Positions 27,809 to 57,660 of a DNA stretch of 64,000 nt are shown piece by piece. How positions within the stretch are numbered: position 1 is the stretch's first letter; each line of letters opens with the position of its first letter. The notes under the pieces are model-generated. The model saw nothing but the letters and a program-made list of their open reading frames with translations, searched no databases and was not told the DNA's origin. Origin of the DNA: Candidatus Zixiibacteriota bacterium (lineage in GTDB: Bacteria > Zixibacteria > MSB-5A5 > UBA10806). Made by a program: the position numbers and the translations under genes. Location: assembly GCA_020344055.1 (NCBI GenBank), contig CP070813.1:295551-359550 (forward strand), written 5' to 3'.

Positions 27809-28292
27809 TCAGGTCTCCTTTCGATTGTCATCCGGGCCGGCAGCGGCCGCCTGCGGCCCAGGATCGGTTTTTCGCAAATTTTAGCACGTTAATATGGAAA
27901 TTTTGACCCGATGCGCAAGTATTTTTTTTCGGGGGGAGGCTTAAATTGATCTCTTGAAAAAAATATAGGTTAGCAGTGCGGTGTTCCTGTACCTTGGATT
28001 TTCGCATCAGAACCGCAGAAACTGATTGCCGGGCCGGCGGTAAAAACCGCTTGACAACAATTATCGGAGAAACTATGATTAATTTAATAGCGCACGCCCG
28101 ATATTATGGTGCGAGAGGTCTGCGACTGTTGGTGATCCGAGTGGTTTGAATAGCTTCAGGAATGAATTTGAAGATAAATTTCCCTCTCCAGATCAAACGT
28201 TTTTTCTCATCAATAATTTTTCAGGCATTTTAATCGAAAGTTATAGTGTTTTGATAGTAGGGGATTTCATTAAACGAAGGAGGCGTACAGCA

Positions 28293-38611: not shown

Positions 38612-40114
38612 ATGAAAATAGATAGAAGGGAATTCTTAAAATCCACCGCAGCCATATCGGCGGGAGCTGCTCTTTATCCCGGCATTATGAGCATCCTTTC
38701 CGGTAGCGGTTGTTCACCGGGCGTAAGAAGGGATCTCGATGAAGATCAAATAGCGGCCATTCTCGAAAAGGGATTGTCGAAGGGAGGGGATTTCTCGGAA
38801 GTTTACATAGAGGAAATCTCGTCTACCTCTTTTGATATGTCCGAGGGCTCGTTTGCCAGAGCGACGGTGGGCGTTTCTCAGGGAATCGGTGTCAGGACTG
38901 CGGAAGGACCTAAGAACGGCTACGCCTATATTAACGGATTCGATTATCGGGAGGCCATGGCGGCCGCCGAGGCATCGGCTTACATATCGGCGTCCGGTGA
39001 AATGGGCGAGGTTGCCTCTCCTGCGAAAAAGTCGCCTGCGGGATATATAACTATCGAAGTCCCGGTGAGCGATGTCGCCGAAACCGTGAAAATGGATTTG
39101 ATTCAAAGCGCCGAACAGGCCGGCCGCGATTTCAGCCCCCTCGTGAAACAGGTGGATATCGAGTATTACGACCATATGAAAAGACGCAAGATAGCCAACT
39201 CCAACGGGCTGAGGATCGAAAACGAAATTCCCCTGATCTGGGTGGTGATAAACGTCCTGGCCGAGAAAAATGGCGTACGCCACCGGGGACGTAAGCGTCT
39301 GTCCGCCCACCAGGGTTTTGAATTTTTCGAGCTAATAGATCTGGAGGAAGCGGCACGAGCCGCCGCCAACGAGGCGGTGACCATGCTGGAGGCCAGACCG
39401 GCGCCGTCGGGGAAAATGCCGGTGGTGTTGTATCCCGGCTGGGGCGGCGTGCTGATGCATGAGGCCGTCGGTCACGGGCTCGAGGGTGACGCGGTGTTCC
39501 GGGGCGCCTCCATATTCGCCGGGAAAATTGGGGAGAAGGTCGCGTCCGACCTGGTCACGCTGGTTGACGACTCCTCCTGGCCCAACGCCCGCGGCACCAC
39601 CGATTTCGACGATGAAGGAACGCCGGGACAAAGAAATGTCCTCATCGAAAACGGTATCTTGAAAGGTTATATGCACGATCTTATTTCGGCCAGACTCCTT
39701 AACGCCTCGCCCACCGGAAATGGAAGGAGAGAGTCTTATAGACATTTCCCGATTCCCAGGATGACCAATACCTTTCTCGAAAATGGAAACGCGAAACGGG
39801 AAGACATAATCGCAGAGACCGCAAGCGGGCTGTTCGTAAAGGCTCTTTCGGGAGGTTCCGTGGATACCACAACGGGCGAATTCAATTTCGAGGTCCGGGA
39901 GGCGTATCTGATAGAAAACGGGAAAATTACATCTCCCGTCTCGGGAGCATCTCTGATCGGAAAGGGTATCGATGTATTAAGCAATATAGACGCTATCGCA
40001 GGCGACCTCGAACTGGGTGTCGGTATCTGCGGCAAGGGCCAGTGGGTGCCGGTAACGTCCGGGCAACCGACCGCCAGGGTTGCCACCGGAATAACTGTCG
40101 GCGGGACGGCGTAG
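38612..40114 (+). CDS. tldD: TldD-family metalloprotease with a twin-arginine (Tat) signal peptide
   Basis: MKIDRREFLKSTAAISAGAALYP (RREFLK Tat motif); PmbA_TldD fold with HEAVGHGLEGD. RBS gcggaggg. Confidence 0.85.
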   Translation: MKIDRREFLKSTAAISAGAALYPGIMSILSGSGCSPGVRRDLDEDQIAAILEKGLSKGGDFSEVYIEEISSTSFDMSEGSFARATVGVSQGIGVRTAEGPKNGYAYINGFDYREAMAAAEASAYISASGEMGEVASPAKKSPAGYITIEVPVSDVAETVKMDLIQSAEQAGRDFSPLVKQVDIEYYDHMKRRKIANSNGLRIENEIPLIWVVINVLAEKNGVRHRGRKRLSAHQGFEFFELIDLEEAARAAANEAVTMLEARPAPSGKMPVVLYPGWGGVLMHEAVGHGLEGDAVFRGASIFAGKIGEKVASDLVTLVDDSSWPNARGTTDFDDEGTPGQRNVLIENGILKGYMHDLISARLLNASPTGNGRRESYRHFPIPRMTNTFLENGNAKREDIIAETASGLFVKALSGGSVDTTTGEFNFEVREAYLIENGKITSPVSGASLIGKGIDVLSNIDAIAGDLELGVGICGKGQWVPVTSGQPTARVATGITVGGTA

Positions 40115-40123
40115 GAGGGTAAA

Positions 40124-41449
40124 ATGGAATTTACGGAAAAAATTCTCGATAAATGCCTGGACGCCGGGGCGGATTCGGCGGAGGTTTTCAGCCTGAATCA
40201 GAAAAAGCTGTCTTTGACCGTGCGGGAAGGTCGGCTGGAGACGATTCAGAAATCGACCCCGGGCGGGCTGGCGGTAAGATTCTTTAAGGACAACAAGACC
40301 GCCTTCGCTCATACCACCGATCTCTCCGAAAAATCGGTAAATGAAATGGTCCGGACTACAAAGAATATGGCGGCGAAAACCGAGCCCGACGAGCTCGCCG
40401 TTCTTCCCGATCCCGGGCAGTACGGGAGAGATCTCGATATATTTGACGACAGCCGCGCCAATATTCCCACGGAAGCGAAGATCGCCTACCTCGTCAATCT
40501 CGAGAAGCTCGCCATGGATTACGATATTCTGATCGACAAATCCAAAGGCGCCTGGTGCTCGGAGGTGCTGTCGGAGATCGAGCTTTTAAACTCCAACGGC
40601 ATCAAATCGATTTATAAATCTTCGCATTATAACGTTGGTATATCGGTAATAGCCTCGAAGAACGGGAATATGTTTCCGGGGGAGGGTTTTATAAGCGCAA
40701 GGCATTTCAGCGATCTGCTCCCGGCGGAAAAGATAGTCGACAGATATGTATCCAGGGCGCTGAGATTGGTGGGCGGTACGCCGGTATCCGGCGGCGATTA
40801 TGAAATCATCTTTACGCCCTATGTCCCCTACACCATAATGTGGGGTTTGGGTTTCGCGCTGAACGGAGAAAACGCGCTTAAGGGAACTTCGTTTCTGGCG
40901 GGCAAAAAAGGTGAGGCTTTTGCCGACAGTAAGTTGAATGTGTACGATGACGCCATCAAACCGCGCGGTGTCTCCAGCCGCCCCGCCGATCACGAAGGTG
41001 TTCCATCTCAAAATAATAAGCTGGTCGAAAACGGCGTTCTCACCGGATACCTGTATGATACCAGGACCGCCGCCAGGGCCGGGGAAAAATCAACCGGTTC
41101 GGCCATAAGGGACGATTACAACGCCAATCCTGAAATTTCGCCCAGCAATTTTTATATCGCGCCGGGCGATGATAAGACCGATGATGTGATCAAATCCTGC
41201 AAAAAAGGGATAATGGTCGAAGCGGTTCACGGCTGGGGCTTAAATAGCGTAAACGGGCAGTATTCAGCCGGCATAAACGGTATACTGGTGAGGAACGGTA
41301 AAATGGTAAAACCGGTTGCCAATGTGACCGTGGCGGCAAACGCCGAAGATTTTTTCAAGGGGATCGGCGCGGTTTGCGATGATATCACCTTTTACCATGG
41401 ATTCAGTTTGCCTACTATAATGATTAAAAAGATGAAGGTAGGCGCCTGA
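40124..41449 (+). CDS. pmbA: PmbA/TldE-family protein (TldD partner) with no signal peptide
   Basis: Typical PmbA_TldD family length and sequence; starts 10 nt after the tldD stop. Confidence 0.8.
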   Translation: MEFTEKILDKCLDAGADSAEVFSLNQKKLSLTVREGRLETIQKSTPGGLAVRFFKDNKTAFAHTTDLSEKSVNEMVRTTKNMAAKTEPDELAVLPDPGQYGRDLDIFDDSRANIPTEAKIAYLVNLEKLAMDYDILIDKSKGAWCSEVLSEIELLNSNGIKSIYKSSHYNVGISVIASKNGNMFPGEGFISARHFSDLLPAEKIVDRYVSRALRLVGGTPVSGGDYEIIFTPYVPYTIMWGLGFALNGENALKGTSFLAGKKGEAFADSKLNVYDDAIKPRGVSSRPADHEGVPSQNNKLVENGVLTGYLYDTRTAARAGEKSTGSAIRDDYNANPEISPSNFYIAPGDDKTDDVIKSCKKGIMVEAVHGWGLNSVNGQYSAGINGILVRNGKMVKPVANVTVAANAEDFFKGIGAVCDDITFYHGFSLPTIMIKKMKVGA

Positions 41450-41974: not shown

Positions 41975-43396
41975 ATGAAGAGGTTTGGTATTACGATTAT
42001 GTTTATTTTTTCGGCGGTATCATATACCGGGGCGCAGGATACGCTCTGGACCGGCCATTATGGCCTTATTGACACCACTGAATTGGGCTATTGCGGGGAT
42101 ATTACATCTGATGGAGGGTTTATCGTGGGAGGCGAGTCGAGCAAATTTCTTAACGGGGATATGTGGCTGGTTCGTTGCGATGCAAACGGCGATACTCTAT
42201 GGACTCGTAATTACGGCGCCGCGAGGTGGCAAATGGCCTATTCCGTTATTCAGACGTCAGATGAAGGCTTTATCGCCTGCGGCGAATATAGCGTGGCCGT
42301 GGGTGATTATGATATGTACGTGGTTCGAGTCGACCCCGCGGGCGATACCCTGTGGACTCGCCTGTTCGGGACCGTGGATCAGAATGATTATGGAAGAGAA
42401 ATTATTCAGACCTCCGATGGAGGTTTCCTGGCGCTGGGTCAAGGATATGGTACCAGCGGCTCCAGCGACCTCTATATGGCCAAAATAGATGAATCCGGAA
42501 ATCTGACCTGGAGCAAAACATACGGTTATAGCGGCGGTAGCGAATACGGCTATGGAGCGGTGCAGTTGCCTGACGACGGATATGCGATTGCCGGAAGCTA
42601 TGCCTATTTGTCAACCTCGGATCTCTGGCTTTTGAGAACCGATTCCAACGGGGACACTCTGTGGACCGAGAGATTTGATTTTCATGGTGATGTAGATCGA
42701 GGGGATGATATCGAGATAGCCGACGACGGTGGATTTGTAATTGCCGGGAGGACGAAAAATGCCGGAAACATGCGCCTTTTAACCATGAAAACCGATTCGC
42801 TCGGAAATATGCTCTGGTGGCGCGAATATGGTAGCTCCAGTTCCGATTTCGCCGAATCGATCGATAAAACCTCGGATGGCGGCTTTGTTATCTGCGGCGG
42901 AGCTAACGCTTATCCCTTTGATTTCTTTGTTGTTCGTATAAGCGCCATCGGTGACTCCCTTTGGGCCGGTATATATGATTATGATGGAATACCAGGAGAT
43001 TCCGATGATTCCTTCGAGGTAAGAGTCCATCCAAATGGAGATATAATGGTGTTCGGCTACGCCGACGTCAAAACCGGCACCGGCGCCGACAACGACTTCT
43101 GGGTTGTTAAAATACATGATGGCGCCCTTCAGCAACCGGGTTGCGAGTACGCTGTGGGCGACGCCAACAACAGCGGCAGCCTTAACGGCCTGGATGTCAC
43201 CTATGGCGTGGCCTTTTTCAAGGGAGGCCCCATGCCTCCGTACGAGTGCGAATGCACGCCGGGGAACACCTGGTTTGTGGCCGGCGACGTTAACGCCTCC
43301 TGCTCCTATAACGGCCTTGATATAACATATCTGGTGAATTACTTTAAAGGCGGATCGGATGTCGAACCGTGCGCCGACTGTCCGCCGGCCGGTTAA
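41975..43396 (+). CDS. Secreted beta-propeller-like tandem-repeat protein with a dockerin-like Cys-containing C-terminal tail (paralog of 14079 and 43415)
   Basis: Signal peptide MKRFGITIMFIFSAVSYTGAQ. Repeats WTR.YG...TSDGGF...G...DMWLVR.D.NGDTLW. Tail CEYAVGDANNSGSLNGLDVTYGVAFFKGG..CECTP...GDVNASCSYNGLDITYLVNYFKGG..PCADCPPAG (43142-43393). Confidence 0.75.
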   Translation: MKRFGITIMFIFSAVSYTGAQDTLWTGHYGLIDTTELGYCGDITSDGGFIVGGESSKFLNGDMWLVRCDANGDTLWTRNYGAARWQMAYSVIQTSDEGFIACGEYSVAVGDYDMYVVRVDPAGDTLWTRLFGTVDQNDYGREIIQTSDGGFLALGQGYGTSGSSDLYMAKIDESGNLTWSKTYGYSGGSEYGYGAVQLPDDGYAIAGSYAYLSTSDLWLLRTDSNGDTLWTERFDFHGDVDRGDDIEIADDGGFVIAGRTKNAGNMRLLTMKTDSLGNMLWWREYGSSSSDFAESIDKTSDGGFVICGGANAYPFDFFVVRISAIGDSLWAGIYDYDGIPGDSDDSFEVRVHPNGDIMVFGYADVKTGTGADNDFWVVKIHDGALQQPGCEYAVGDANNSGSLNGLDVTYGVAFFKGGPMPPYECECTPGNTWFVAGDVNASCSYNGLDITYLVNYFKGGSDVEPCADCPPAG

Positions 43397-43414
43397 ACAC
43401 TGATAGAATAGTTT

Positions 43415-44875
43415 GTGGCGGAGTATAAAATGAAAAAATCTGTATTTCTGGCAATCGCGTTCTCGCTTTTTGTCTCAAACGCTCTCGTGGCGCAGGATAG
43501 TCTCTGGAGCAGGTTTTACGGGCATACCGGAAATGGAGGAGTTTTTGACAGCGATCGCGGAATGTGCGGAACTGTCGCCTCGGATGGGGGTTATGCTATC
43601 GGAGGCGTTTCTTACGCGTTCCAGGGGCTGCTGTCCGAATTCTGGCTGGTTAGAACTGACTCAAACGGGGATACACTCTGGACAAGAAATTACGGGACCG
43701 TCGGATTTGAAGAAGCTCATTATCTGATCCAGACCGATGACGGCGGGTACGTATTATGCGGCGACACCAAACCCTCGGGAGGAAATTATAATTTATATAT
43801 AGTCAGAACCGATTCGCTGGGCGATACCCTCTGGACCCGGAGTTTCGGTTCGCCCGCCGGCGACGATAAAGGATGGGCTATTGTCCAGACCGATGACGGC
43901 GGATTTCTGGCGGTCGGCCACGGGTACGGGTCCGGCTGGGATGTTTATATGGTCAGGTTGAATGAATCCGGAGACTCTTTATGGTCGAAAAAATATGGCG
44001 GAAGCCATCCGGATGCCGCCTACGGAGTCACGCAAACGGCCGACGGCGGTTTTGCCCTGGTCGGGCAGTATGCCAACGATGACTTTGGCGATACCGATCT
44101 GTGGTTATTACGCGTCGATTCTCTGGGCGATACTCTCTGGACCCGGAAATACAGCTACAGCGGCGGATGGTCTCGAGGTGAAGCTATCGCGAAAACCTCC
44201 GACGGAGGGTTCGTTATCGCCGGTCAAAACTGGCTGACACTGACCAATGTTGTGATGCTTCTGGTTCGTACCGATTCCCTGGGCAACGAAATCTGGCATA
44301 AAGAATACGGAGGCCCCAATATCGATAACGCCATGTCGCTCGATATCACCTCCGACGGCGGAATTGTTGCCGGGGGACAAACCGATTCCTTCGGTGGCGG
44401 CAACAAAGATTTTTACATTGTCAGGACCGATTCGAGCGGTGATTCTCTTTGGTCAGCGGTTTTCGGCCATAACGGAATCGATTATTGCCACGAAATCAGG
44501 GTCGATCCGTCCGGCGATATAATGGCTTTCGGCCAGCACCATATATACGGCAGCCAGGATTTCGACTACTGGATGATAAAGATAGCCGACAGTACCGCGC
44601 AAAGTGGATGCGAGTATGTCGTCGGCGATGTCAATGACAGCGACAGCTATAACGGTCTTGATATCACTTATGGGGTCAACTTCTTCAAGGGCGGTTCCGA
44701 TCCGATGTGTCCTTTCGGTTCCTGTTCTATTTCTCCTTGCGACACGTTTTTCTACTGCGGAGATGTCAATGGCAGCTGTTCGTATAATGGCTTAGATATT
44801 ACCTACGGGGTTGCGTATTTCAAAAGCGGTCCCGATCCGATTCCCTGCCCCGATTGCCCGCCGACGGGCGATTAA
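43415..44875 (+). CDS. Secreted beta-propeller-like tandem-repeat protein with a dockerin-like Cys-containing C-terminal tail
   Basis: Signal peptide MKKSVFLAIAFSLFVSNALVAQ. Same repeat family. Tail CEYVVGDVNDSDSYNGLDITYGVNFFKGG..CGDVNGSCSYNGLDITYGVAYFKSG..PCPDCPPTGD (44609-44872). Confidence 0.75.
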   Translation: MAEYKMKKSVFLAIAFSLFVSNALVAQDSLWSRFYGHTGNGGVFDSDRGMCGTVASDGGYAIGGVSYAFQGLLSEFWLVRTDSNGDTLWTRNYGTVGFEEAHYLIQTDDGGYVLCGDTKPSGGNYNLYIVRTDSLGDTLWTRSFGSPAGDDKGWAIVQTDDGGFLAVGHGYGSGWDVYMVRLNESGDSLWSKKYGGSHPDAAYGVTQTADGGFALVGQYANDDFGDTDLWLLRVDSLGDTLWTRKYSYSGGWSRGEAIAKTSDGGFVIAGQNWLTLTNVVMLLVRTDSLGNEIWHKEYGGPNIDNAMSLDITSDGGIVAGGQTDSFGGGNKDFYIVRTDSSGDSLWSAVFGHNGIDYCHEIRVDPSGDIMAFGQHHIYGSQDFDYWMIKIADSTAQSGCEYVVGDVNDSDSYNGLDITYGVNFFKGGSDPMCPFGSCSISPCDTFFYCGDVNGSCSYNGLDITYGVAYFKSGPDPIPCPDCPPTGD

Positions 44876-45017
44876 AACCTTGACAACCTTTTAGATATCA
44901 GTATCTTAAATATATCATCGCGCGCTGTCATCTTTGAAAAATTATTATGTCAATATCGGGTGGGGGATTATTAAGATTCATAGGAAAATAAGTGTTTTAA
45001 AGGGTCGGAGGTGTGTG

Positions 45018-47825
45018 ATGTTTTATTTTCCAGTCCGCAAATCGATTGTTATTCTGTCAACAATGTTTTTATCCGTATTTATTATTACGGCAGCGTTGGC
45101 GCAAAAACCTAAGGTTAAGCTAGAACCGGTCTTGTTTGATAATTTTGAAAGCAGAACTCCCGAAGAGTTGTACGTGCCCGAACACATAACCAAAAAACCC
45201 GGCCACTACACCATCACCGACTGGCAAAACGCCATAGATTCAACCTGGGGATGGGGACGGATTAAATCTCAGAAGCTCGATATTTTTGATTCTGTTTGGA
45301 TGGCAATCGATGGAGAATTCGCCTGCTTTGTTAATCATCCAGATTATTATCCCGGGATGTGGATCGATCTGTACACTCTCTATCGAACGGAGATAGATAC
45401 AGGTAATCCTACATACGGCGTCAGCAGAGGTCGGTTTGCGGCCATCATGAATTACCTGACATTGGCTTTGAAAGAAAGCCATACTGAAGCCTGCGACCGT
45501 GATGTGAATCTTTACACATCTCTTTCACCCGGTGTTCCTCTGTTGGTTCTGGGGCCCTTCGGTGATAACGGACATTTCGGGGCGGGTTTAACCCCCCTTC
45601 CCGACAGCACCTCGCTGGTTTATAGAACCGTGCTGAATCATCCCCTTGGATTAGAGCCCGGTGACATCGTATTGGGTTATGATGGTATCCCCTGGAAAGA
45701 GCTTTATTTCGATCTCATAGACGCCCAGCTTCCTCTATATAGCTATTGGTATGAGGGGAGTTGTGAAAGCGCCTATACCCACGCATGGCTGATGAGCGCG
45801 GGCATGAACTGGCATCTTTTCGACACGCTCGATATCGTAAAATACGGAACCGGCGATACGCTTCATTTATCGGTACAACCATTGATCGGCCAGAACATGA
45901 CTCTTTTCTGCTCGGAACAAATGGACATACCGGGCGTCCCCATGCCGGATTTAAGTCAGGGTATACTCGCAAGTTACGGAGTTATCTCCGGAACCCAGAT
46001 CGGCTACATTTACGTCTGGGGCTGGTATGATGAGGATGTTGAATCACAATTCTATGACGCAGTAAGCGCGTTAGTTAGCAATCCTGATATCACCGGATTA
46101 ATCATAGACCTCAGGTTGAACTGGGGAGGTGAACATCATCTGGCAAATGCTGGATTAAATTTAATCTTCAATACGAAAGAATTAGGATTTGGCTATGGCG
46201 AACGCTGTTCTCCAACTGATCATCTTCTGATGTGTCCTAACGATTTTGCCTATTATCATTATATATACGGATCCGCCAAAGCCTATTTCGATAAGCCAAT
46301 TGCTGTCTTAACAGGTCCTGGTGCGCACAGCGCGGGAGATGTCTTTGCAATTACAATGAAACCGCATCCGATGACAAGGTTCTTTGGAAAGGCGTCGGAA
46401 TCCGCATTTAACGTTCCGGTTTATGTCAGTACTGGATATTCGGATTGGCGTTTTCGCAACGCAATTTGGAATGAGTACATGCTTGATGACCCCTCCAATT
46501 ATCTCACCCATTCCGAATTGGAAATTGATGAGTATATATGGCTTTCTCCATCCGATGTCGCCCAGGGTTTCGATACCGTTGTGGAGAGCGCCAGGAGCTG
46601 GATAAACAGCCAGCAGGGTTTACAGCCAGATATATCTGCCGATTCTACGAGTTATAATGTTACTCTTGATTACGGGGAGATTATGTCTGAGACCTTGATA
46701 ATAAACAATAACGGTAGCCGCACGCTGTTTTACTCTCTAACACCGGAAGTCGATTCCGGAACTGTCTATATGTCGAAAAAACTGCCATCGACCACGGGTC
46801 ATGGGGGTTATGATGATTACGGCTATACCTGGATAGATTCGGATCAGCCGCATGGCCCGGCTTTCAGCTGGGTAGATATTTCCGGGATCGGTACCCCCGT
46901 AAGCCTTGGAGATGATTCGTATGTGGGTCCCATAGATATCGGATTTACCTTCCCATTCTACGGCGACGACCATTCGGAGCTTTATATATGCTCTAACGGT
47001 CTTATAACTTTCGGAGCAGGTTCGGGAGTTTATAATAACACACATATTCCCGGCTCCGGCTCTCCGAATAATTTTGTTGCCCCCTGGTGGGATGATCTTA
47101 ATCCCGCAATCGGGGGAGAAGTTTATTTCCATTCAGATGAAGAACGCTTTATTGTGAGCTTTATAGGAGTTCCCAAATATGGTTATGTAAGTTCTGCCAC
47201 TTTCCAAGCGATACTTTATCCTGATGGTCAAATAGAATTCAATTACCTCAACACCGACCTTGAATACGTAGGTTTCTGGGATTTCTATACTACAACCATC
47301 GGCATAGAAAATTCGGGTGGTTCCGATGGACTCGAGATTTATTATAATGCCCCCTACACTATCGATAGCCTTAGTATTTTAATCAATACCGACTGGCTGG
47401 CCGTGAATCCCCACAGCAGCTACATCGCCCCTGGAGATAATGATACGGCCACAGTAACATTCAGTTCAAAGCATCTCGCCCTGGGGATATATACAGGGGA
47501 TATATATCTCGATTCTAATGATCCTACCGATTCGCTGATTATTATTCCGGTATCGCTTACGGTGACCGGAGGTTGCGATTATGTAACCGGTGATGTCAAC
47601 GGCAGTGATAGCTATAACGGCCTTGATATTACCTATGGCGTCAACTTCTTTAAAGGCGGGAGCGACCCGATGTGTCCTGAATGCGGTCTCTGCCCCGATT
47701 GGCACTACTGTGGCGATGTCAACGGAAGCTGCAGTTACAATGGCTTAGATATTACCTATGGTGTGGCTTATTTCAAGGGCGGCGATGCTCCGGTTCCCTG
47801 CGCCGACTGCCCGCCCATAGATTGA
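45018..47825 (+). CDS. Secreted peptidase S41 (C-terminal processing/tail-specific protease-like) with a dockerin-like Cys-containing C-terminal tail
   Basis: GGAGG 6 nt before the ATG at 45018; signal peptide MFYFPVRKSIVILSTMFLSVFIITAALAQ. S41 motifs GLIIDLRLNWGGEHHLA and PIAVLTGPGAHSAGDVFA. Tail CDYVTGDVNGSDSYNGLDITYGVNFFKGG..CGDVNGSCSYNGLDITYGVAYFKGG..PCADCPPID (47574-47822); TGA stop. The ORF is open from 44934. Confidence 0.7.
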   Translation: MFYFPVRKSIVILSTMFLSVFIITAALAQKPKVKLEPVLFDNFESRTPEELYVPEHITKKPGHYTITDWQNAIDSTWGWGRIKSQKLDIFDSVWMAIDGEFACFVNHPDYYPGMWIDLYTLYRTEIDTGNPTYGVSRGRFAAIMNYLTLALKESHTEACDRDVNLYTSLSPGVPLLVLGPFGDNGHFGAGLTPLPDSTSLVYRTVLNHPLGLEPGDIVLGYDGIPWKELYFDLIDAQLPLYSYWYEGSCESAYTHAWLMSAGMNWHLFDTLDIVKYGTGDTLHLSVQPLIGQNMTLFCSEQMDIPGVPMPDLSQGILASYGVISGTQIGYIYVWGWYDEDVESQFYDAVSALVSNPDITGLIIDLRLNWGGEHHLANAGLNLIFNTKELGFGYGERCSPTDHLLMCPNDFAYYHYIYGSAKAYFDKPIAVLTGPGAHSAGDVFAITMKPHPMTRFFGKASESAFNVPVYVSTGYSDWRFRNAIWNEYMLDDPSNYLTHSELEIDEYIWLSPSDVAQGFDTVVESARSWINSQQGLQPDISADSTSYNVTLDYGEIMSETLIINNNGSRTLFYSLTPEVDSGTVYMSKKLPSTTGHGGYDDYGYTWIDSDQPHGPAFSWVDISGIGTPVSLGDDSYVGPIDIGFTFPFYGDDHSELYICSNGLITFGAGSGVYNNTHIPGSGSPNNFVAPWWDDLNPAIGGEVYFHSDEERFIVSFIGVPKYGYVSSATFQAILYPDGQIEFNYLNTDLEYVGFWDFYTTTIGIENSGGSDGLEIYYNAPYTIDSLSILINTDWLAVNPHSSYIAPGDNDTATVTFSSKHLALGIYTGDIYLDSNDPTDSLIIIPVSLTVTGGCDYVTGDVNGSDSYNGLDITYGVNFFKGGSDPMCPECGLCPDWHYCGDVNGSCSYNGLDITYGVAYFKGGDAPVPCADCPPID

Positions 47826-47923: not shown

Positions 47924-48406
47924 TTGGAAATTGTAAAGATTACACAAAGCGACAGCGAGGTCTTAAAAAACCTCATGTCGATGTATCTTCACGACATGTC
48001 CGAGTTCGCCGGTTTTTTAAGGCTTGACCGGAACGGTTCATATAAATATCAAAACCTGCGTTATTACTGGGAAAAAGAAGGACTTTCGGCCTACCTAATA
48101 AAAATAGAATCCGAAGTCGCCGGTTTTATCCTCTCAAACAGAAAGCCTTTTATTCCTGACGATTGCGATATATCCATACAGGAGTTCTTTATTTTAAAAA
48201 AATACCGGGGTAAAGGATACGGTAAAAAAGCGGCGCTGGAATTTCTAAGGCTCTTTCCTGGAAAGTATTATATCGCTCAGCTGGTCAACAACAAACCCGC
48301 CATTGAATTCTGGCGCTCGGTTTACAAAAGTATTGGACTTGATTACGAAGAACGCGAGGAAGTAGATTCCAGGATCAAGATACTCACTCAGAGATTCACA
48401 ATATAA
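47924..48406 (+). CDS. GNAT family N-acetyltransferase
   Basis: Acetyl-CoA binding motif QEFFILKKYRGKGYGKKAA. The TTG start at 47924 is uncertain; internal ATGs are alternatives. Confidence 0.7.
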   Translation: MEIVKITQSDSEVLKNLMSMYLHDMSEFAGFLRLDRNGSYKYQNLRYYWEKEGLSAYLIKIESEVAGFILSNRKPFIPDDCDISIQEFFILKKYRGKGYGKKAALEFLRLFPGKYYIAQLVNNKPAIEFWRSVYKSIGLDYEEREEVDSRIKILTQRFTI

Positions 48407-48537
48407 AAGGCCTTCGGACACGTCCTGTTATTCCGGGCAAATATAATCGTTTTAAGAACTTTCGTATTTTATGTTGTTCCTTATAATTCCCATAAATCCT
48501 TCTTGACCGAATGCGATTCGTCTGGTAATCTTAAGAT

Positions 48538-49209
48538 ATGGCAAGACTGACGGCCGACCTGAAGCCGATTGAGCAGTTCTACAAATTCGGGAATCCCCAG
48601 AAGGAGATCCTCAGGCATTGTCTTTCCCTGGAGATGGCGGGCGTGGAGAGCGTTTTGATAAATACCGGCGACGGTTTTGAACCGTCCCGAAGCCGCTTGC
48701 TGGAGATCGTAAAGGACACCCTGAATATCGGGTTGACGGTGGAGACCGAGGCCGGCGAGCAGTGGATCGAGGCCCTGCAGGAAATCAAACCCTCCATGGT
48801 TATTTTCAACTATGATGATAGTCGCTATGAAGAGTATTCCGGTTTCGTTACCCGCCTGCAGGTGAAGGATATTCTGGTGGCGTTCCGCATCAAGGATAAC
48901 GTGGAATACGTCAAGAAAGCCGCCAGATTGAAATCCGATTATATCATTCTGGATTGCGGCCCCTATTGCGATACCGAGTCGATGAACAAAGAGGTGGAAG
49001 AACTGAATAAAATCGCGAAGATCTCCTCATTGGGCAAAAAGCTGTCCATGGGAGTTATAGCGTCGGGGGAATTCAACAAAAGAAAACTCAAACGGTTGCA
49101 CGATACCGGCGCGGTGGAGGAATTTATTCTGGAATTGAGGTTCTTTTCGGAATCGCTTCTCTACGGATACGGAACGGCCGTCTGGAATATCCGGTCCACT
49201 TTAATTTGA
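48538..49209 (+). CDS. PdxJ-like TIM-barrel protein, divergent and apparently lacking the N-terminal catalytic His/Arg motif of pyridoxine 5'-phosphate synthase
   Basis: Colinear similarity to PdxJ. [16 protein letters not shown]...[27 protein letters not shown] parallels AEQAGADGITVHLRED...[40 protein letters not shown] parallels ELARIAKAATFAASLGLKV. The N-terminal NIDHIATLRNAR-type segment is absent. Confidence 0.35.
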   Translation: [223 protein letters not shown]

Positions 49210-49305
49210 TACCATTTATTTGTCGCTGTTGTATATTTAATCGATTGCCAGCCGTTATATTTTTTTATATCTTAATCTTGGATTAAAATAAACCGGGAGG
49301 ATTCA

Positions 49306-50199
49306 ATGCTTACGGGAATTCACTTTCTTCTGACTTATAAATGCACCTTTGAGTGCGATCATTGTTTCGTATATTCCAGCCCCGATGCCGAGGGGGTGTT
49401 TACCATCGCCCGGGTCGAAAACGCATTGAAACAGATGAAAGAGACCGGTACTGTAAACAACGCTTATTTTGAGGGAGGAGAGCCGTTTTTATATTATCCC
49501 GTTCTCCTGGAATCTTTAGCGCTGGCCAAATCTATGGGATTTAAGACCGGTATTGTTACGAACGCCTACTGGGGAGAATCCGAAAGGGACGCCGAGCTGT
49601 GGCTGAAGCCAATAGCGGAGATCGGCATAGACGATCTCTCGATTTCAGATGACCTGTTTCACAATCCCGACGGCGGAAAGGGGCCGGCCGCTTACGCCCT
49701 CGACGCGGCCAAAAAGCTCGGTATGCCGGTCGGAGATATATGTATCGATAAACCCAAGCTGATTGAAAATGCCGATGCCAAAAAAGGCGAGCCGGTAATT
49801 GGCGGCGGCGCCCTGCTCAAAGGCCGCGCCGCGGAAAAGCTGATCGGGGATTTTCCGCGCAGGGAATATTCCATTTTCGATAAATGCCCTCATGAGGAGT
49901 TCGAAAAACCGTCGAGATTCCATCTGGATCCCTACGGGAACCTGCACCCCTGCCAGGGAATAAGCGTGGGCAATATGTGGGAAAAACCGCTTAAAGATAT
50001 CATGAATAACTATAATCCAATGAAGCACCCGATTCTGTCTCATATTTTAAAGGGCGGACCGGCAAAACTCGCGGAGGAATATGGATTTGACACCTCGCCG
50101 GGATTCGTGGATCACTGCCATCTGTGTTATGAAGTCAGAAAAACCTTGCTCGACCGTTTCCCCAAGGAGCTCGCCCCCAGGCAGGTTTATGGATTGTAA
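49306..50199 (+). CDS. Radical SAM protein with a C-terminal auxiliary Cys cluster (SPASM/twitch-like)
   Basis: LTYKCTFECDHC (C-x3-C-x2-C), GGEPFLY, and C-terminal C...HPCQG...DHCHLC. RBS gggagg. Confidence 0.7.
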   Translation: MLTGIHFLLTYKCTFECDHCFVYSSPDAEGVFTIARVENALKQMKETGTVNNAYFEGGEPFLYYPVLLESLALAKSMGFKTGIVTNAYWGESERDAELWLKPIAEIGIDDLSISDDLFHNPDGGKGPAAYALDAAKKLGMPVGDICIDKPKLIENADAKKGEPVIGGGALLKGRAAEKLIGDFPRREYSIFDKCPHEEFEKPSRFHLDPYGNLHPCQGISVGNMWEKPLKDIMNNYNPMKHPILSHILKGGPAKLAEEYGFDTSPGFVDHCHLCYEVRKTLLDRFPKELAPRQVYGL

Positions 50200-50203
50200 G
50201 TTG

Positions 50204-52318
50204 TTATTTCAATAGCAGGCATCTTCCGGTTTCGGTGAAACCATCGGATTCGATTTTATAAAAATATACCCCTGATGGGTAACCGGCGGCATTCCAGATC
50301 GTCTTATGCCGGCCGGCGTCAATATACCCGGAGCACAACGTTTCAAGTTTCCTTCCCAGCATATCGAATATTTCTACTTTGATGTCGGATCGGCTCGGCA
50401 AATCGTAGACGATGGTGGTAGAGGAGTTGAACGGGTTGGGATAATTATTGAATAAAACAAAATCGCCGGGTTTCGTTACACCAGGATCATCGACTGATGT
50501 AATCGCACCGAGTTTCAATATCATTAAGGAATAGCTGTCAGCCAGGAATATCAGGCTGTCCGATGTCGCTTCGATGCATCGGGCGATGCCGGGCGTTTTG
50601 TACTCCGAAATTAAGAAAGGATTATAAGGATCGGAGATATCCACGACCTGAACACCGCTGTTTTCAAAGGCGACATAAAGACAATCGCCGCGTAAATCCA
50701 GATCGCAAGTGATTCCATCCAGATCGAACATACCGGCCAAAGCCGGCAGGTATGGATTCGACACATCGACTATTTTTATGCCCGAGTAGCTATCGGCGAG
50801 GTAAACATAATCATCTCTCGCGATCAGCGAATACACTTCGCCGTAACAGATGTATTCGCCGCAATACTGAGGATCGGTGGGATCGCTGACATCGAGTATC
50901 TTAAAACCATACATAAGGTCCGATATATAAGCGTAATTGCCGTCAATATAAACATCGAAGGCAACATCGAAGCCCCCGAAAACAGCTGCTTGCACAGGAT
51001 AGGAGGGATTTGAAACATCGATAATGAAAAGACCATCCGACTCTGCGCACAAGTAGGCGTAATCGCCGTCAACGCAGATACCTGCCAGATAATTCGAAAT
51101 ATTCAGCAGTTGTCCTTCGAGATGGGGGTTGGCGGGAAAGGAAATGTTATAGATTTTCAAATGGCCGGGAGTCGAAGCATAGGCATAATCACCTTCGATG
51201 CAAAAGTCGTTCGCCCAGAATCCCCCCGGTGTGCTTCCCACAACAGTCGGGTTGAAAGGATCGCTGATATCAAGCGATAACAGGTTTTCACCTGCCTCGA
51301 CCCAGGCATAATCTCCGGACAACCGGACGATTTGAACCAATCCGTCGTTTTCGTAATGATCCCGGACGGTCGGATTAAAAGGATCGATGATGTTCATGGT
51401 ATAGAATCCGTACAGCGATGCGATATAGGCGGTATTCTGGTCAGCAAAGATTTCGAGGTAGTTATCCACTTGATAGTTTTCGCCGAGCAGTATGGGGTTG
51501 GAGGGATTCGATATATTGAAAATGTTCAAGGTATATCCATTGCCTGTATATTTTCCGATATAGGCATAATAGTTTCTTACGAAAACGGCGCGAACCGGCG
51601 ACGTATTATAAGTGTTTACTATTGAAGGAGTTGTGACGTCGGAAATATCGACGATATAAAAACCGTCATAATAACCGGCCATATAGGCGTAATCTCCCTG
51701 GACCACGTTATTTATAGCGATAAGTGAATCCAATTCGCTTACATATAACGGATTGCCGGGATCGCTGACGTTCAGGATCAATAAACCGCCGGTATAAAGA
51801 GAAACATAGGCGTAATCCCCCTGCACGCACGTATTCCTTGCGTACCCGGACGTTTGATAATTGGATAGCAATGAGATATTGTTGATATCAGATAAGTCGA
51901 GAATGCAAACTCCGGTGTCCTGATCGCTCAGGTAGCCGTAGTCGCCCGCAATAAAGATGTCGTAGGCATTACCGTCGGTGGAAAAACCGTTTACTATGGA
52001 CGGATTCTGCGGGTCGGAAATATCGACAATCTGCAGCCCCTGGAAACCGTCGGCAAGATATGCATAACTCCCTTCCACCCGGATCCCATGAGAGCCCCCT
52101 CCCACATAAAGCCTGCTTACAAAAGAAATATTATTCGGATCGCTGACGTCAAAAATGACCAGGCCGTTGGCATAGGAACAATAGGCGTAATTGCCCCCAA
52201 CCGCCACATCGAAATTCATTGACCATAACTTAGAATTAACATATTCGATATCCTGGGCGTTTATATTGAATGCCAATAATAGCATCAAACCTGAAATTAA
52301 TACTATCATCTTATTCAT
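50204..52318 (-). CDS. Secreted LVIVD-repeat beta-propeller protein with a T9SS C-terminal sorting domain
   Basis: Signal peptide MNKMIVLISGLMLLLAFNINAQ. Many YAY.A...G(L/F).I.D(V/I)S(D/N)P repeats. C-terminal NYPNPFNSSTTIVYDLP...GVYFYKIES...GRCLLLK. Confidence 0.8.
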   Translation of the reverse strand: MNKMIVLISGLMLLLAFNINAQDIEYVNSKLWSMNFDVAVGGNYAYCSYANGLVIFDVSDPNNISFVSRLYVGGGSHGIRVEGSYAYLADGFQGLQIVDISDPQNPSIVNGFSTDGNAYDIFIAGDYGYLSDQDTGVCILDLSDINNISLLSNYQTSGYARNTCVQGDYAYVSLYTGGLLILNVSDPGNPLYVSELDSLIAINNVVQGDYAYMAGYYDGFYIVDISDVTTPSIVNTYNTSPVRAVFVRNYYAYIGKYTGNGYTLNIFNISNPSNPILLGENYQVDNYLEIFADQNTAYIASLYGFYTMNIIDPFNPTVRDHYENDGLVQIVRLSGDYAWVEAGENLLSLDISDPFNPTVVGSTPGGFWANDFCIEGDYAYASTPGHLKIYNISFPANPHLEGQLLNISNYLAGICVDGDYAYLCAESDGLFIIDVSNPSYPVQAAVFGGFDVAFDVYIDGNYAYISDLMYGFKILDVSDPTDPQYCGEYICYGEVYSLIARDDYVYLADSYSGIKIVDVSNPYLPALAGMFDLDGITCDLDLRGDCLYVAFENSGVQVVDISDPYNPFLISEYKTPGIARCIEATSDSLIFLADSYSLMILKLGAITSVDDPGVTKPGDFVLFNNYPNPFNSSTTIVYDLPSRSDIKVEIFDMLGRKLETLCSGYIDAGRHKTIWNAAGYPSGVYFYKIESDGFTETGRCLLLK

Positions 52319-52428
52319 TGGAAATTCCTTTCCTCAGACTTAATATGCTATAAGATATCTATAATTAGTTCTTTTGTCAAGTAAACAGACTAGAGATTGA
52401 ATTTTATCGGTTGATTCTGGTATAATAA

Positions 52429-52710
52429 ATGGAAGACAGGAGGCTTGAGATGTTTGAGAAAAGGCTGCAATCGTTCACGTACGCCGTCGGGATAACGTTT
52501 ATTATACTGGCGGCGCTCACGGGAGTTACCTATTTCTGGTTTTTGCTTCTGGTGGGAGGAGCGTTCAGGAATATCCCCGCTTTCGGCGCTCTGCCCGCGA
52601 CCGAGATGGCAGAATATATGCTGGATCTGAAACTATTCTCTATAGTGATCGGGACGGTATTTATTATCTGCAGTTTGTGGCACAGAAAATTGAGAAGGGA
52701 AATTAAATAG
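52429..52710 (+). CDS. Small hypothetical membrane protein (2 TM helices)
   Basis: Two hydrophobic helices; RBS-like gacaggagg upstream. Confidence 0.35.
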   Translation: MEDRRLEMFEKRLQSFTYAVGITFIILAALTGVTYFWFLLLVGGAFRNIPAFGALPATEMAEYMLDLKLFSIVIGTVFIICSLWHRKLRREIK

Positions 52711-53227
52711 CCCTCTCATGCGCCAGAAGCCATTCTTTTCTCTTTAGACCGCCTCCGAATCCCGTGAGCGATCCATCCTTGCCGATGACTCTATGACAGG
52801 GGATAACGATTGAAATGCGGTTGCTTCCTACAGCGGCGCCGACGGCTCGTGCCGCCCCCGGGTTTCCGGTCTTTTCGGCGACCCCCCCGTAATTGACGGT
52901 TTTCCCGAACGGGATTTTTTCAAGCTGTTTCCAGATCGTCTCCTGAAACCCGGTTCCGGTATAGTCCAGGGGCAGATCGAATTTGGCCAATCTGCCGGAA
53001 AAATAAAGACTTAACTGCTTTTTCGCCTTTTTCAGGATCGGCGTTTCCTGTCTATTTAATTTCGCCCCGTAATGTCTGGAGAGAGTCTTTAAGGTTTTTT
53101 TTGTCCGGTCGCCTTTAAAATCCACCATGCAGATTTTGCCTTTGTGCTCTCCTATGATAATTTTCCCCAGAGGGGATTCGGTTTCGTTATGGTTGAGATC
53201 GCTGTCGAATTTTCTTGATTCTGCCAT
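52703..53227 (-). CDS. ogt: Methylated-DNA--protein-cysteine methyltransferase
   Basis: Active site IVIPCHRVIG; DNA-binding HTH ...GKTVNYGGVAEKTGNPGAARAVG. Confidence 0.9.
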   Translation of the reverse strand: MAESRKFDSDLNHNETESPLGKIIIGEHKGKICMVDFKGDRTKKTLKTLSRHYGAKLNRQETPILKKAKKQLSLYFSGRLAKFDLPLDYTGTGFQETIWKQLEKIPFGKTVNYGGVAEKTGNPGAARAVGAAVGSNRISIVIPCHRVIGKDGSLTGFGGGLKRKEWLLAHERAI

Positions 53228-53375
53228 TTTTCCTCCCGTTTTACCGCAAAAAAAAGGTTGAGGAGGGAAAGTCCAGCAAAATCGTGTTTTTTTGCAGAAT
53301 ACTGGAGTATCAACGGTTTTTTTACCGTAATAAAAAAAATTTGATCTTTATCGCTATGCTCCGATATTATATATT

Positions 53376-54623
53376 ATGAACATGCGTGAAGGATTAAAAA
53401 CCTTTCTTATTCCGGCGATTATTATTTCGTTCCTTGTTATTTGTTGTGACGGCGAGTCCACCAGGCCGGAAGACGGTATTCCCATTAGAATTACCGCCCC
53501 TGATGACGGTGACGTTTTATTTAATCCGGTCACGATTGCCGCTCAAACCGGGTCGGGATTTTCGATTACCGATGTGGAGTTTTATATCGACGGCGAGCTG
53601 GTATGGATTGATAATGACCGGCCGTTTGAATACTACTGGAATATTTTCGGTTATGAGAATAACTCCGAGCATACCATTATGGCGACCGGGTATTCCGATA
53701 CCGCAAGTTACACTTCGGATACCGTGACGGTAACGATTTCTCTTGAAGAGGGACTTTTATTCGTCGCCGCCTACAGGCCCAACGCGGACTGGACCTACGG
53801 GGTAGCGACTTATCAGAATATTATGTTTGTGGCCACCGGCGAAAGCGGCGTGGAGGTTATCGATGTTCTGGATAAGACATTTCCCATGTATATTTCTCGG
53901 TTTGAAAGTGCCGGACAGGCGCTAAAAGTCGACGTTCGATATCCCCACCTGTTTATCGCCGATTTTTCCGGAGGAGTGATAAGGGCCGATATTTCCGATC
54001 CGGACTCGTTGACGGAAGCCGGCCTGTACAATATCGAGGTGCAGGCTATCGACGTCGCCGTATCGGATGATATCGTATTCGTAGCCGATCAGAACGGTTT
54101 TATTATTCTCGATAATACCCTGCCGGATTTCCTGGTATCTTTATTCAGATCGTATTTATTCAGCGGCTCAAACTACGTTACCGCCAGGAACGATACCGCT
54201 TATATAACAAATCTGGGCAACCTGTATATTATTAATGCATCTACCCCCGATTCGCCGGAAATAGTTTTCGCCTATCAATCGCCCGGCGCCAGGGGAGTGG
54301 CGGTTATTGACACTTTCGCTTTTGTAGCCAGGGGCGACCAGGGGGTAGCCGCCTTATCCATCTCCGATCCTCAGAATCCGGGATACCTGGCCGGATATGT
54401 AACCCAGGGCGCGGTTTCCAGCGTGGAAGCGGCCGACTCCACTTTATTTGTCGGAACGTTCTCCGGCGAAGTAATAGCTCTGGATTATACTCAGCCCGAC
54501 ACCCTTCGCCTGTTCGACAACCTGGTAATTGACGGGGTTCTTATCAATTATTTGAAATTCGATTCTCCTTATCTTTATGCCGCCACCAGTCAAGGAATAA
54601 ACATTCTTAGATTTATCAGATAG
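53376..54623 (+). CDS. Lipoprotein with an N-terminal Ig-like domain and LVIVD-like beta-propeller repeats
   Basis: MNMREGLKTFLIPAIIISFLVICC (signal with Cys). VEVIDVLDKTFPMYISRF / IRADISDPDSLTEAGLY / IILDNTLPDF repeats resemble those of the 50204 gene. Confidence 0.6.
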   Translation: MNMREGLKTFLIPAIIISFLVICCDGESTRPEDGIPIRITAPDDGDVLFNPVTIAAQTGSGFSITDVEFYIDGELVWIDNDRPFEYYWNIFGYENNSEHTIMATGYSDTASYTSDTVTVTISLEEGLLFVAAYRPNADWTYGVATYQNIMFVATGESGVEVIDVLDKTFPMYISRFESAGQALKVDVRYPHLFIADFSGGVIRADISDPDSLTEAGLYNIEVQAIDVAVSDDIVFVADQNGFIILDNTLPDFLVSLFRSYLFSGSNYVTARNDTAYITNLGNLYIINASTPDSPEIVFAYQSPGARGVAVIDTFAFVARGDQGVAALSISDPQNPGYLAGYVTQGAVSSVEAADSTLFVGTFSGEVIALDYTQPDTLRLFDNLVIDGVLINYLKFDSPYLYAATSQGINILRFIR

Positions 54624-54776
54624 TCGAAAGATCGATTTTTTATCGCCCCTCAATTACCCCATCTCCGGTCAATAGCGGCAAAAACCTAAAATTAGCTTGC
54701 CAAATATATTCAGTTATACTATTTTAAATCAGCCATCGGCTTCTCTGTTTGGATTTGGTGCAATTCGTCTGATGAA

Positions 54777-55268
54777 ATGAAGGAATCAATCGTAGGCGAC
54801 CCCATCTTCTGGCCGGGATTAGTCTATTCTCCCATAAATCTTAACGGCCTCCTTTTCGCGTTGGGAACCGTTACCGACGAGATCGGTCTGCTATTCGAGG
54901 AGTTCTCCGAGGATGGATCTCTGGCTGTATGCCGCATGAAAACAAAAGACGGTTGGAGAAAAATCAGAGCTGCCTTTTCAATTAAGAGCTCGGAATTCAA
55001 TCTCACCGAGGATCGGCCGGATTTGCTTATATGCTGGGTGCATGATTCCGATCCCGGAACCGGAAAATTGTCCATACTGGAGCTCTCCGGGATAAGGGGC
55101 CAGCCAAGCTCCAATAATGCCTTGCCCCATAAGCCCTTGGGCGGTCTGGACGGCATATTTTCGGAGGATCCGACTAACGATCTTCTCCACAGGGGAGAAG
55201 CCATCGTCAACTTCGAAGAGACCATACGTCAACTGGACGATCGAATAAAAAAATTGAAAAATGGTTAA
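54777..55268 (+). CDS. Hypothetical protein
   Basis: ORF only; upstream of the cohesin-dockerin paralogs. Confidence 0.35.
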   Translation: MKESIVGDPIFWPGLVYSPINLNGLLFALGTVTDEIGLLFEEFSEDGSLAVCRMKTKDGWRKIRAAFSIKSSEFNLTEDRPDLLICWVHDSDPGTGKLSILELSGIRGQPSSNNALPHKPLGGLDGIFSEDPTNDLLHRGEAIVNFEETIRQLDDRIKKLKNG

Positions 55269-55446
55269 TAAAAACTTGCATTTTGATCCGTCGAAAACAA
55301 TATTGAGACGTCTACGGGAATTTCTTTTGGGGGCTTGTCCTGCCCGTTTAAGGGCCTGGCGTTTGAAAAGTTACTTAAATCTGACCGCAGATGTTTTTTG
55401 GATTTGAGATCTCAATTAATATGACCATTAAAAATGGAGAACCAAA

Positions 55447-57645: not shown

Positions 57646-57660
57646 AAGGGGATCGAAATA

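Follow-up and report, generated by a model that had tools for sequence, protein, structure and literature searches.

A cysteine-rich, dockerin-like C-terminal tail on secreted proteins of a Zixibacteria genome and its candidate cohesin partners

In the present study, we analysed a stretch of 64,000 nucleotides (nt) from a Candidatus Zixiibacteriota bacterium (NCBI GenBank assembly GCA_020344055.1, contig CP070813.1, positions 295,551 to 359,550 of the forward strand), which is called the window below and is numbered from its first letter. An earlier note, made from the letters alone, had described in it a family of secreted proteins with unrelated N-terminal modules and one common C-terminal tail of about 85 amino acids (aa). 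As judged from sequence comparison and from a predicted structure, this tail has the bacterial (type-I-like) dockerin fold, is rich in cysteines and divergent in sequence, and constitutes a sub-threshold branch of the Pfam family Dockerin_1. The same window encodes cohesin proteins that end in the C-terminal domain of the type IX secretion system (T9SS). We consider it probable that the tails and the cohesins belong to an undescribed, cellulosome-like surface assembly, which would be anchored via the T9SS and would be composed mostly of proteins other than carbohydrate-active enzymes (CAZymes).

A regular-expression scan and sweeps with a hidden Markov model (HMM) over all six frames of the window gave exactly six copies of the tail, the number given in the earlier note, all of them on the + strand. 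The E-values of the tail HMM for these copies were between 1e-43 and 1e-49, which is far beyond chance, and every copy terminates its open reading frame (ORF), the stop codon following 2-4 residues past the last motif. The carriers form two clusters, at 15.6-21.4 kb (carriers A, B and C) and at 42.0-47.8 kb (carriers D, E and F; Table 1). The span 41975-47825, to which the family had been assigned, therefore holds D, E and F, and the other three sit 21-26 kb upstream of it. All six carriers begin with a hydrophobic N-terminus that by inspection resembles a signal peptide, and a crude hydrophobicity test for a signal peptide was positive in 138 of 177 full-length members of the wider family. 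The pairwise identity among the six tails is 61-80%, and domain scans confirmed that the cargo in front of them differs from carrier to carrier and is unrelated. Between tail copies, the proportion of synonymous differences (pS) is 0.58-0.96, that is, synonymous sites are saturated, and the proportion of nonsynonymous differences (pN) is 0.16-0.35; the ratio of nonsynonymous to synonymous substitution rates (dN/dS) is about 0.1-0.3, with dS saturated. Because synonymous sites are saturated and pN is low, the tails are old and have been kept by long-term purifying selection. Recent duplication or gene conversion as the source of the tail similarity is ruled out by the same saturation. The NCBI annotation recognises the tail in none of the six carriers, which are labelled 'hypothetical' or by the cargo domain only; carrier D, for example, is 'hypothetical protein JSW64_01475' (UCC80055.1).

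The tail is built from two near-identical 24-residue calcium-loop/helix repeats (GDVNxSxSYNGLDITYGVxYFKGG), a cysteine-containing linker between them and a PCxDCPP end, and the two tandem repeats are present in all six tails. Both loops have the ligand pattern D1-N3-S5-N9-D12, which is followed by the helix ITYGVxYFKGG. Over 315 unique modules of the family, the conservation of D1, N3 and D12 is 95% or more, and the most conserved columns are D1, N3, N9 and D12 of both loops together with the cysteines. Repeats 1 and 2 of one tail are identical at 14-21 of 24 positions, as in dual-binding dockerins. The AlphaFold2 model of the carrier F tail, built from a family alignment of 126 sequences, has a predicted local distance difference test (pLDDT) value of 96.1 and a predicted template modelling (pTM) score of 0.85, and comprises a loop with a helix at 17-27 and again a loop with a helix at 58-68. 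In a Foldseek comparison of this model with the PDB, 28 of 29 matches were cohesin-binding dockerins, with template modelling (TM) scores by target of 0.6-0.81 and probabilities of 0.8-1.00. When a profile of the six tails was compared with the PDB, the five best matches were type I dockerins (7 of 10 overall), and the three alignments inspected span both repeats. Furthermore, hhalign aligned the 126-sequence family with canonical dockerins over both repeats with 94.3% probability and E = 1e-7. The proposal of a dockerin-like tail with two calcium loops was thus borne out by the predicted fold, by Foldseek and by hhalign, and the structure prediction did not reveal an unrelated fold.

When the full carriers and the isolated tails were compared with Pfam and NCBIfam, the tail was assigned to no family at scores above threshold, and Dockerin_1 was the sole consistent weak Pfam match. 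It was matched below threshold by all six isolated tails (best E 1e-3; one score was 14.9 bits), was reported for one of the six full-length carriers, and is present as a precomputed PF00404 match in about 10 of 120 members that stand further off in the family, so that some relatives do reach the threshold. The earlier view that the tail belongs to no named family has therefore to be given up in favour of this Dockerin_1 branch. Other identities of the tail were tried and rejected. It is not a T9SS C-terminal domain, as there was no match to Por_Secre_tail or CHU_C and helices with calcium loops make up the predicted fold. It is not a signal of the exosortase type (PEP-CTERM, IPTL-CTERM), since no hydrophobic segment lies within or beyond it and the extensions are hydrophilic. 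A fungal dockerin was rejected because CBM_10 (PF02013) gave no match even at E <= 10 and the fold matches the bacterial one.

The candidate receptors of the tail are two adjacent paralogs of the same architecture near the end of the window (Table 1), which are 42% identical over their full length (BLASTP). The central module of the second one reaches 24.7 bits with Pfam Cohesin (PF00963) and is barely above the cutoff of 24.1 bits; the same Pfam family was matched at E < 0.01 by 36 of 49 homologs of the cohesin proteins (best 3e-8). A profile of the cohesin-protein family, compared with the PDB, matched cohesins at positions 297-409, further on a dockerin at 456-523, and finally, over its end, T9SS C-terminal domains, and from the dockerin match it follows that each cohesin paralog carries a canonical, cysteine-free dockerin of its own. 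The candidate receptor modules have the nine-stranded beta-sandwich of the cohesin fold. Their N-terminal module, here called N-type, has no Pfam match at all, and the window encodes in it a second cohesin type that is missed by sequence models. Co-occurrence of tails and cohesins, proposed in the earlier note as a check, was found in the window, in two further genomes of Zixibacteria and also on single polypeptides. Orthologs of both cohesin paralogs (P0257 and P0284) are on the closed 3.74-Mb chromosome CP070742.1. In Zixibacteria Ww191, the cohesin pair lies in the same syntenic block, and about 8 kb upstream of it there is a 470-aa ORF whose coordinates match the tail carrier of locus L045. 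The block shared by window positions 47924..59850 and Ww191 locus L083 (JAHEDG010000031.1) consists of the tail gene(s), GNAT, pdxJ-like, radical SAM, MGMT and Big_7/LVIVD genes, a small ORF and then the cohesin/T9SS pair; an LVIVD protein with a T9SS domain (50204..52318, - strand) is an extra of the window.

With an N-type HMM applied to the sequences collected, we found the N-type cohesin and the cysteine-rich tail together in one polypeptide in 32 proteins, 23 of them among 133 newly listed representatives. Five tandem N-type cohesins with a C-terminal tail are present in L040 (on CP070742.1) and P0183, and three with a tail in L059, P0122 and P0172. P0123 and P0129 are adaptors of about 390 aa with the order dockerin-cohesin-dockerin (Doc-Coh-Doc), P0135 and L079 have alternating Doc-Coh arrays, and L081 is a minimal anchor made of a signal peptide, an N-type cohesin and a T9SS C-terminal domain. 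A narrow N-type cohesin alignment, searched against metagenomes, gave 3 loci. Taken together, the anchors, adaptors, scaffoldins and many plug-bearing subunits show in their domains the grammar of a system for cohesin-dockerin assembly. A small secreted protein at the start of the window may be a putative Doc-Coh adaptor. Its dockerin was matched by phmmer to the Ruminococcus flavefaciens group I dockerin 5m2o_B (E = 1.1e-4) and by the canonical-dockerin HMM (E = 1e-4), and its C-terminal part, which opens DTILIESIVTVPGDSISLPVWINT, has a weak N-type cohesin match (E = 0.01); Pfam gave no match for this protein.

Table 1. Tail carriers, candidate receptors and related proteins of the window
Feature	Coordinates	Strand	Domains and modules	Basis or annotation
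Carrier A	15661..17088	+	Signal peptide, right-handed beta-helix (NosD-like), CarboxypepD_reg, tail 16816..17085	Pfam Beta_helix, CarboxypepD_reg; tail HMM E = 8e-49
Carrier B	17501..18514	+	Omp28-family protein with CPYC motif, tail 18248..18511	Pfam Omp28 2.9e-10; tail HMM E = 4e-48
Carrier C	19007..21427	+	DUF7948, 7x SBBP beta-propeller, tail 21164..21424	NCBI: 'SBBP repeat-containing protein'
Carrier D	41975..43396	+	Propeller of ~47-aa repeats, tail 43139..43393, 6-Cys 'CxC' linker type	Weak delta-60/SBBP-like matches
Carrier E	43415..44875	+	Propeller paralogous to D, tail 44606..44872, 8-Cys linker type	
Carrier F	45018..47825	+	Peptidase_S41, NIDO-like, Ig-like, tail 47571..47822, 8-Cys type	Pfam Peptidase_S41 2.5e-13
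Propeller paralog of D and E	14079..15371	+	Ends in IPTL-CTERM, no dockerin tail	
Candidate anchor/receptor 1	55447..57645	+	N-type cohesin ~55549..56049, Big_9, central cohesin-like region, canonical dockerin ~56806..56991, T9SS C-terminal domain 57391..57630	Pfam Por_Secre_tail and Big_9; N-type cohesin HMM E = 1e-70; canonical dockerin HMM E = 7e-26
Candidate anchor/receptor 2	57661..59850	+	Signal peptide, N-type cohesin ~57745..58248, Big_9-like, Pfam cohesin 58546..58929, canonical dockerin ~58999..59184, T9SS C-terminal domain 59596..59829	
Small secreted protein, 238 aa	109..825	+	N-terminal canonical dockerin (aa 24-90), then ~140 aa, cohesin-like at start	

A profile search of the kind proposed in the earlier note, run on 1.84 billion cluster representatives, returned 1,806 proteins at E <= 1e-3, of which 1,013 were at E <= 1e-10 and 197 at E <= 1e-30; all matches with a named organism were from Zixibacteria. 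Strict peptide patterns, applied to about 185,000 species-representative genomes, matched 78 loci in five genomes, which are labelled as three Zixibacteria, one unclassified 'uncultured bacterium' and one Ignavibacteria, and 37 of these loci are on CP070742.1. Of 332 modules, 187 extend to 5 or fewer residues from the C-terminus, 130 are followed by a further 6-60 residues and 15 by more than 60, so that the tail is C-terminal in about 95% of family members, as had been claimed, and not merely an internal domain. The cargo, taken from the representative search together with the genome loci, is diverse. In 81 representatives it was mostly CarboxypepD_reg, beta-helix/NosD, FG-GAP, LVIVD, BNR, SBBP, InhA-like MAM and cupredoxin domains, with an occasional enzyme such as a beta-lactamase-fold protein, and no glycoside hydrolase or carbohydrate-binding module (CBM) was among the 25 most frequent of the 48 cargo families of these representatives. 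The cargo is mainly adhesin-like, peptidase or redox modules, rather than cellulases.

In about 40% of family members, a C-terminal extension of 8-70 aa follows PCxDCPP, and none of these members is in the window; examples are loci L001, L010, L017, L018, L026, L031 and L047 and proteins P0005, P0010 and P0139-P0142. The extension is hydrophilic, without a hydrophobic segment, and its last residue is K or R in 93 of 140 cases. Several conserved sub-types recur, among them '...AVSAPISRM[RK]' and '...PETPSVIKTK..QKGPSSK'. This extension might contain a processing site or serve as a second signal or as a linker.

In the assembly that we propose, proteins with a Sec signal and diverse cargo (propellers, beta-helices, the S41 peptidase, the Omp28-like CPYC protein) would use the tail as a plug, and this plug would dock in a calcium-dependent manner into cohesin modules. 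The receiving cohesins would reside on proteins fixed to the outer surface via the type IX C-terminal domain, such as the pair at 55447-59850, and further cohesins would be offered by proteins of the scaffoldin type, which have 3-5 cohesins in tandem and terminate in this tail as well; the assembly would thereby become hierarchical and cellulosome-like. The small tail module would be stapled by disulfides between its cysteines, and the outcome would be the surface display of a mixed, largely non-carbohydrate-active set of proteins.

Several observations weigh against this proposal and should be set beside it. None of the six tails, with scores of about 15 bits, reaches the Dockerin_1 gathering score of 22.9 bits, and the loops have an atypical Ser at position 5 and an atypical Tyr at position 8. 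When loci were taken from one closed chromosome, at least about 40 tail-bearing ORFs stood against few cohesin proteins. In classical systems, cohesin and dockerin modules in one polypeptide are usually non-cognate. Therefore, the fusions of tail and N-type cohesin do not identify the binding pair and, if anything, argue by analogy with classical scaffoldins for non-cognate pairs. Finally, the carriers have Sec signals only, in what is presumably a diderm cell, and their route to cohesins on the surface is unexplained by the proposal. As such a route, piggyback export might be imagined, in which oxidised, folded tail proteins would bind the T9SS-dependent cohesin proteins in the periplasm and pass the type IX translocon as a complex; we regard this as rather unlikely. 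If it were true, a few T9SS-signalled anchors or scaffoldins could export and display dozens of cargo proteins that otherwise lack a signal.

The earlier note had left two roles open for the tail, which could be a ligand of the cohesins encoded in the window or else a sorting signal of a new kind. The docking role gained support, as the window cohesins are real and the tail is homologous to dockerins, and the new sorting signal did not, as no machinery was recognised in the scanned genes and neither a transmembrane nor a basic anchor is present in the tail. A C-terminal signal for sorting or secretion, complete in itself, read by a dedicated machine and comparable to a folded analogue of the T9SS C-terminal domain, would indeed explain why the tail stands at the extreme C-terminus of unrelated cargo, on carriers that lack another known route across the outer membrane. 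It would also accord with the additional basic C-terminal extension of about 40% of the family and with the near mutual exclusion of the two domains: tail and T9SS C-terminal domain occur together in only 3 of 356 proteins, and they are swappable with each other and with IPTL-CTERM within the same cargo classes, other proteins of the propeller and LVIVD classes having T9SS or IPTL-CTERM ends in the window. Nevertheless, such a signal is improbable in our judgement, because the tail is homologous, by sequence as well as by fold, to a module known for protein-protein docking. Moreover, it can also lie inside a protein or at its N-terminus, alternating with cohesins, it contains no hydrophobic anchor segment and, in the three proteins that have both domains (L065, L072 and P0244), it precedes the T9SS domain. 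No gene for a sorting machinery was recognised near the tails in the scanned flanks, a scan that left aside about one third of the large ORFs, including those at 23.4-27.2 and 31.6-38.3 kb, and several small ORFs.

The tail might also have a dockerin fold without binding cohesins, and serve as a terminal module, stabilised by calcium and disulfides, for another ligand (for instance a glycan of the cell surface, lipopolysaccharide or an S-layer component) or as a mere stabiliser. Dockerin-like modules without a demonstrated cohesin partner are reportedly widespread. The surface residues of the tail helices are unlike the canonical recognition pairs, the extra cysteines and the PCxDCPP cap are unnecessary for canonical cohesin binding, and only a handful of cohesin proteins was seen for dozens of tails. 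We nevertheless hold this reading to be unlikely: the tail is repeatedly fused to cohesin-fold modules in scaffoldin and adaptor architectures, cohesin proteins co-occur with it in three genomes, and in both repeats the helix face hardly varies among hundreds of paralogs, as would fit a single shared protein partner. The cysteines bear on a further alternative. Full modules (n=332) contain six cysteines in 155 cases and eight in 132, together 287 of 332, and odd counts are rare, so the earlier figure of four to seven conserved cysteines has to be replaced by six or eight. There are two linker subtypes, 'CxC' and 'Cx2-4Cx2-4Cx5C', the 6-Cys modules having CxC plus CxxC and the 8-Cys modules Cx2Cx2Cx5C plus CxxC, and position 6 of the second loop is an invariant cysteine. 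The PCPDCPP ending of the earlier note holds as the general cap PCxDCPP, with the exception of carrier C, which finishes in the variant PCPDCQLTMQ. In extracytoplasmic proteins, an even cysteine count usually means disulfides. The tail cysteines probably form 3-4 disulfides, and a Cys4 metal site plus disulfides may be present instead. It would be a different matter if the tail were primarily a metal-binding or redox module, for example a Zn(Cys)4 knuckle or an Fe-S-like CxxCxxC...C site, with the likeness to dockerins being secondary. The CxxC-type patterns in both subtypes and the CPYC thiol-oxidoreductase-like nature of one carrier would suit such a module. It is very improbable, as the cysteine patterns of the linker differ between subtypes whereas the calcium loops are conserved, the dockerin fold is predicted confidently and no metal-cluster template was matched, and the carriers are extracytoplasmic with even cysteine counts.

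Compared with known systems, the closest relatives of the tail are the type I dockerins (PF00404; PDB 4uyq_B, 5nrk, 4fl4 and 2ccl_B) of clostridial and ruminococcal cellulosomes. Both have tandem EF-hand-like loop and helix repeats of about 24 residues with the D1/N3/N9/D12 ligands and an internal two-fold sequence symmetry, and both are C-terminal on secreted cargo. The tail differs in its 6 or 8 conserved cysteines, PCxDCPP cap, Ser5 and Tyr8 and its longer, cysteine-rich linker, and also in its host, a Gram-negative candidate phylum in which the cargo is mostly propellers, beta-helices and peptidases and not CAZymes. The fungal (Neocallimastigomycota) CBM10-type dockerins are likewise cysteine-rich, disulfide-stabilised docking modules on secreted enzymes, and they are unrelated to the tail in fold and sequence. 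The T9SS C-terminal domain (PF18962 / TIGR04183) resembles the tail in being a folded module of about 80 aa with which secreted proteins of diverse cargo end in this organism; however, it is a beta-sandwich recognised by the T9SS and cleaved by the PorU sortase, whereas the tail has a two-helix calcium-loop fold. The cohesin 2xdh of Archaeoglobus fulgidus and the toxin-complex cohesins 2vo8 and 2w1n of Clostridium perfringens belong to non-cellulosomal systems of few components, in contrast to the dozens of dockerin proteins per genome and the multi-cohesin scaffoldins of Zixibacteria. For the Cloacimonadota ('Ca. Stygibacter'), dockerin enzymes and a scaffoldin with a T9SS C-terminal domain have been inferred (Williams et al. 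2021; PMC8542988). Cloacimonadota and Zixibacteria are alike in being uncultured and in having a T9SS-type domain on cohesin proteins, signal-peptide proteins with C-terminal dockerins and peptidase cargo. In Cloacimonadota, dockerins and cohesins are detectable by InterPro and there is a single giant scaffoldin with CBMs (PMC8542988), whereas in Zixibacteria the dockerin is sub-threshold and cysteine-rich, Pfam fails to see one of the two types of cohesin, Doc-Coh-Doc adaptors and tail-bearing scaffoldins with 3-5 cohesins occur, and no CBMs were seen.

In our literature search, no paper joining Zixibacteria with dockerin or cohesin was found. Zixibacteria and cellulosome co-occurred in a single paper, each term being mentioned once, and a term search of a 2024 cellulosome census gave no occurrence of 'Gram-negative', 'T9SS' or 'type IX'. 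What is new here is a cysteine-rich dockerin branch together with a cryptic cohesin branch, which would build an elaborate network in a phylum new to such systems. The Zixibacteria, an uncultured phylum, are widespread in sediment and soil. If the binding is real, they would possess a cohesin-dockerin assembly of several tiers, built on a Gram-negative chassis with T9SS anchoring, in which anchors, adaptors, scaffoldins with 3-5 cohesins and dozens of plug proteins per genome display propellers, beta-helices, peptidases and redox proteins, and the cellulosome paradigm would be widened in taxonomy and in function. In addition, about 1,800 clusters of 'hypothetical' C-termini gain a name, a cohesin family overlooked by sequence models is revealed, and the question arises of how dockerin cargo passes the outer membrane. 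A disulfide-stapled dockerin/cohesin pair could also serve designer protein scaffolds as a robust part.

Some features of the individual carriers and of their cargo classes should be added. The propeller paralog of D and E at 14079..15371 matches IPTL-CTERM in Pfam with 23.8 bits (cutoff 20.8) and in NCBIfam (TIGR04174) with 25.8 bits (cutoff 20.5), and therefore the same cargo class employs an alternative C-terminal device. In this genome, the propeller-type cargo class has at least three alternative C-terminal devices, namely the dockerin, the T9SS C-terminal domain and IPTL-CTERM. Five proteins of the window end in T9SS sorting domains: 3486..5369 (-), 5598..8489 (+), the 50204..52318 (-) protein mentioned above and the pair at 55447..59850 (+). 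An S8 peptidase and a 10x LVIVD propeller are among the proteins with this domain. Five such domains in 64 kb imply that the organism depends heavily on the T9SS; no gene of the T9SS machinery was identified in the scanned part of the window. The start of carrier F is at 44934 in the mechanical ORF and at 45018 in NCBI (UCC80057.1, 935 aa). Carrier B, which had been labelled a CPYC redox protein, is better described as a protein of the Omp28 family, and it also matches the NCBIfam models for Omp28-related selenoprotein (NF045500) and Omp28 lipoprotein, both below cutoff. It resembles a cysteine version of a family that uses selenocysteine elsewhere, and it adjoins carrier A, which contains an in-frame TGA.

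This TGA, at 16345-16347, interrupts the reading frame of carrier A; gene callers split the gene there, and in NCBI the last 178 aa alone are annotated. The same codon is TGA in the ortholog L077 (CP070742.1, ~3521-3523), which is 85% identical over a segment of 116 aa, and in the more divergent metagenomic ortholog L082 (frame 3), which is 67% identical over 40 aa downstream. The conservation of the protein runs through the TGA (GIWTH[S/A]*HQxSPxGSA, where the asterisk is the TGA), and 3' of it there is a conserved GC-rich hairpin whose apical loop begins 16 nt after the UGA codon. As a hairpin resembling a selenocysteine insertion sequence (SECIS), it was no more stable than 24% of shuffled sequences, which is not significant, and no homolog with cysteine at the TGA position was found. 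The TGA may thus be regarded as a candidate selenocysteine or recoded UGA codon in a secreted NosD-like beta-helix protein, to which the hairpin adds a suggestive element only.

Around the carriers, two large ORFs of 595 and 500 aa (28146..29933 and 29890..31392, +) overlap at their ends and have no credible Pfam match. Directly upstream of the D-E-F cluster, at 38612..41449 (+), lie two adjacent ORFs of 500 and 441 aa, which by eye resemble a TldD/PmbA metalloprotease pair. The other neighbours of the tail genes are housekeeping in character and comprise ispG/ispH, pdxS/T, ferritin, Rrf2, GNAT and a radical-SAM gene.

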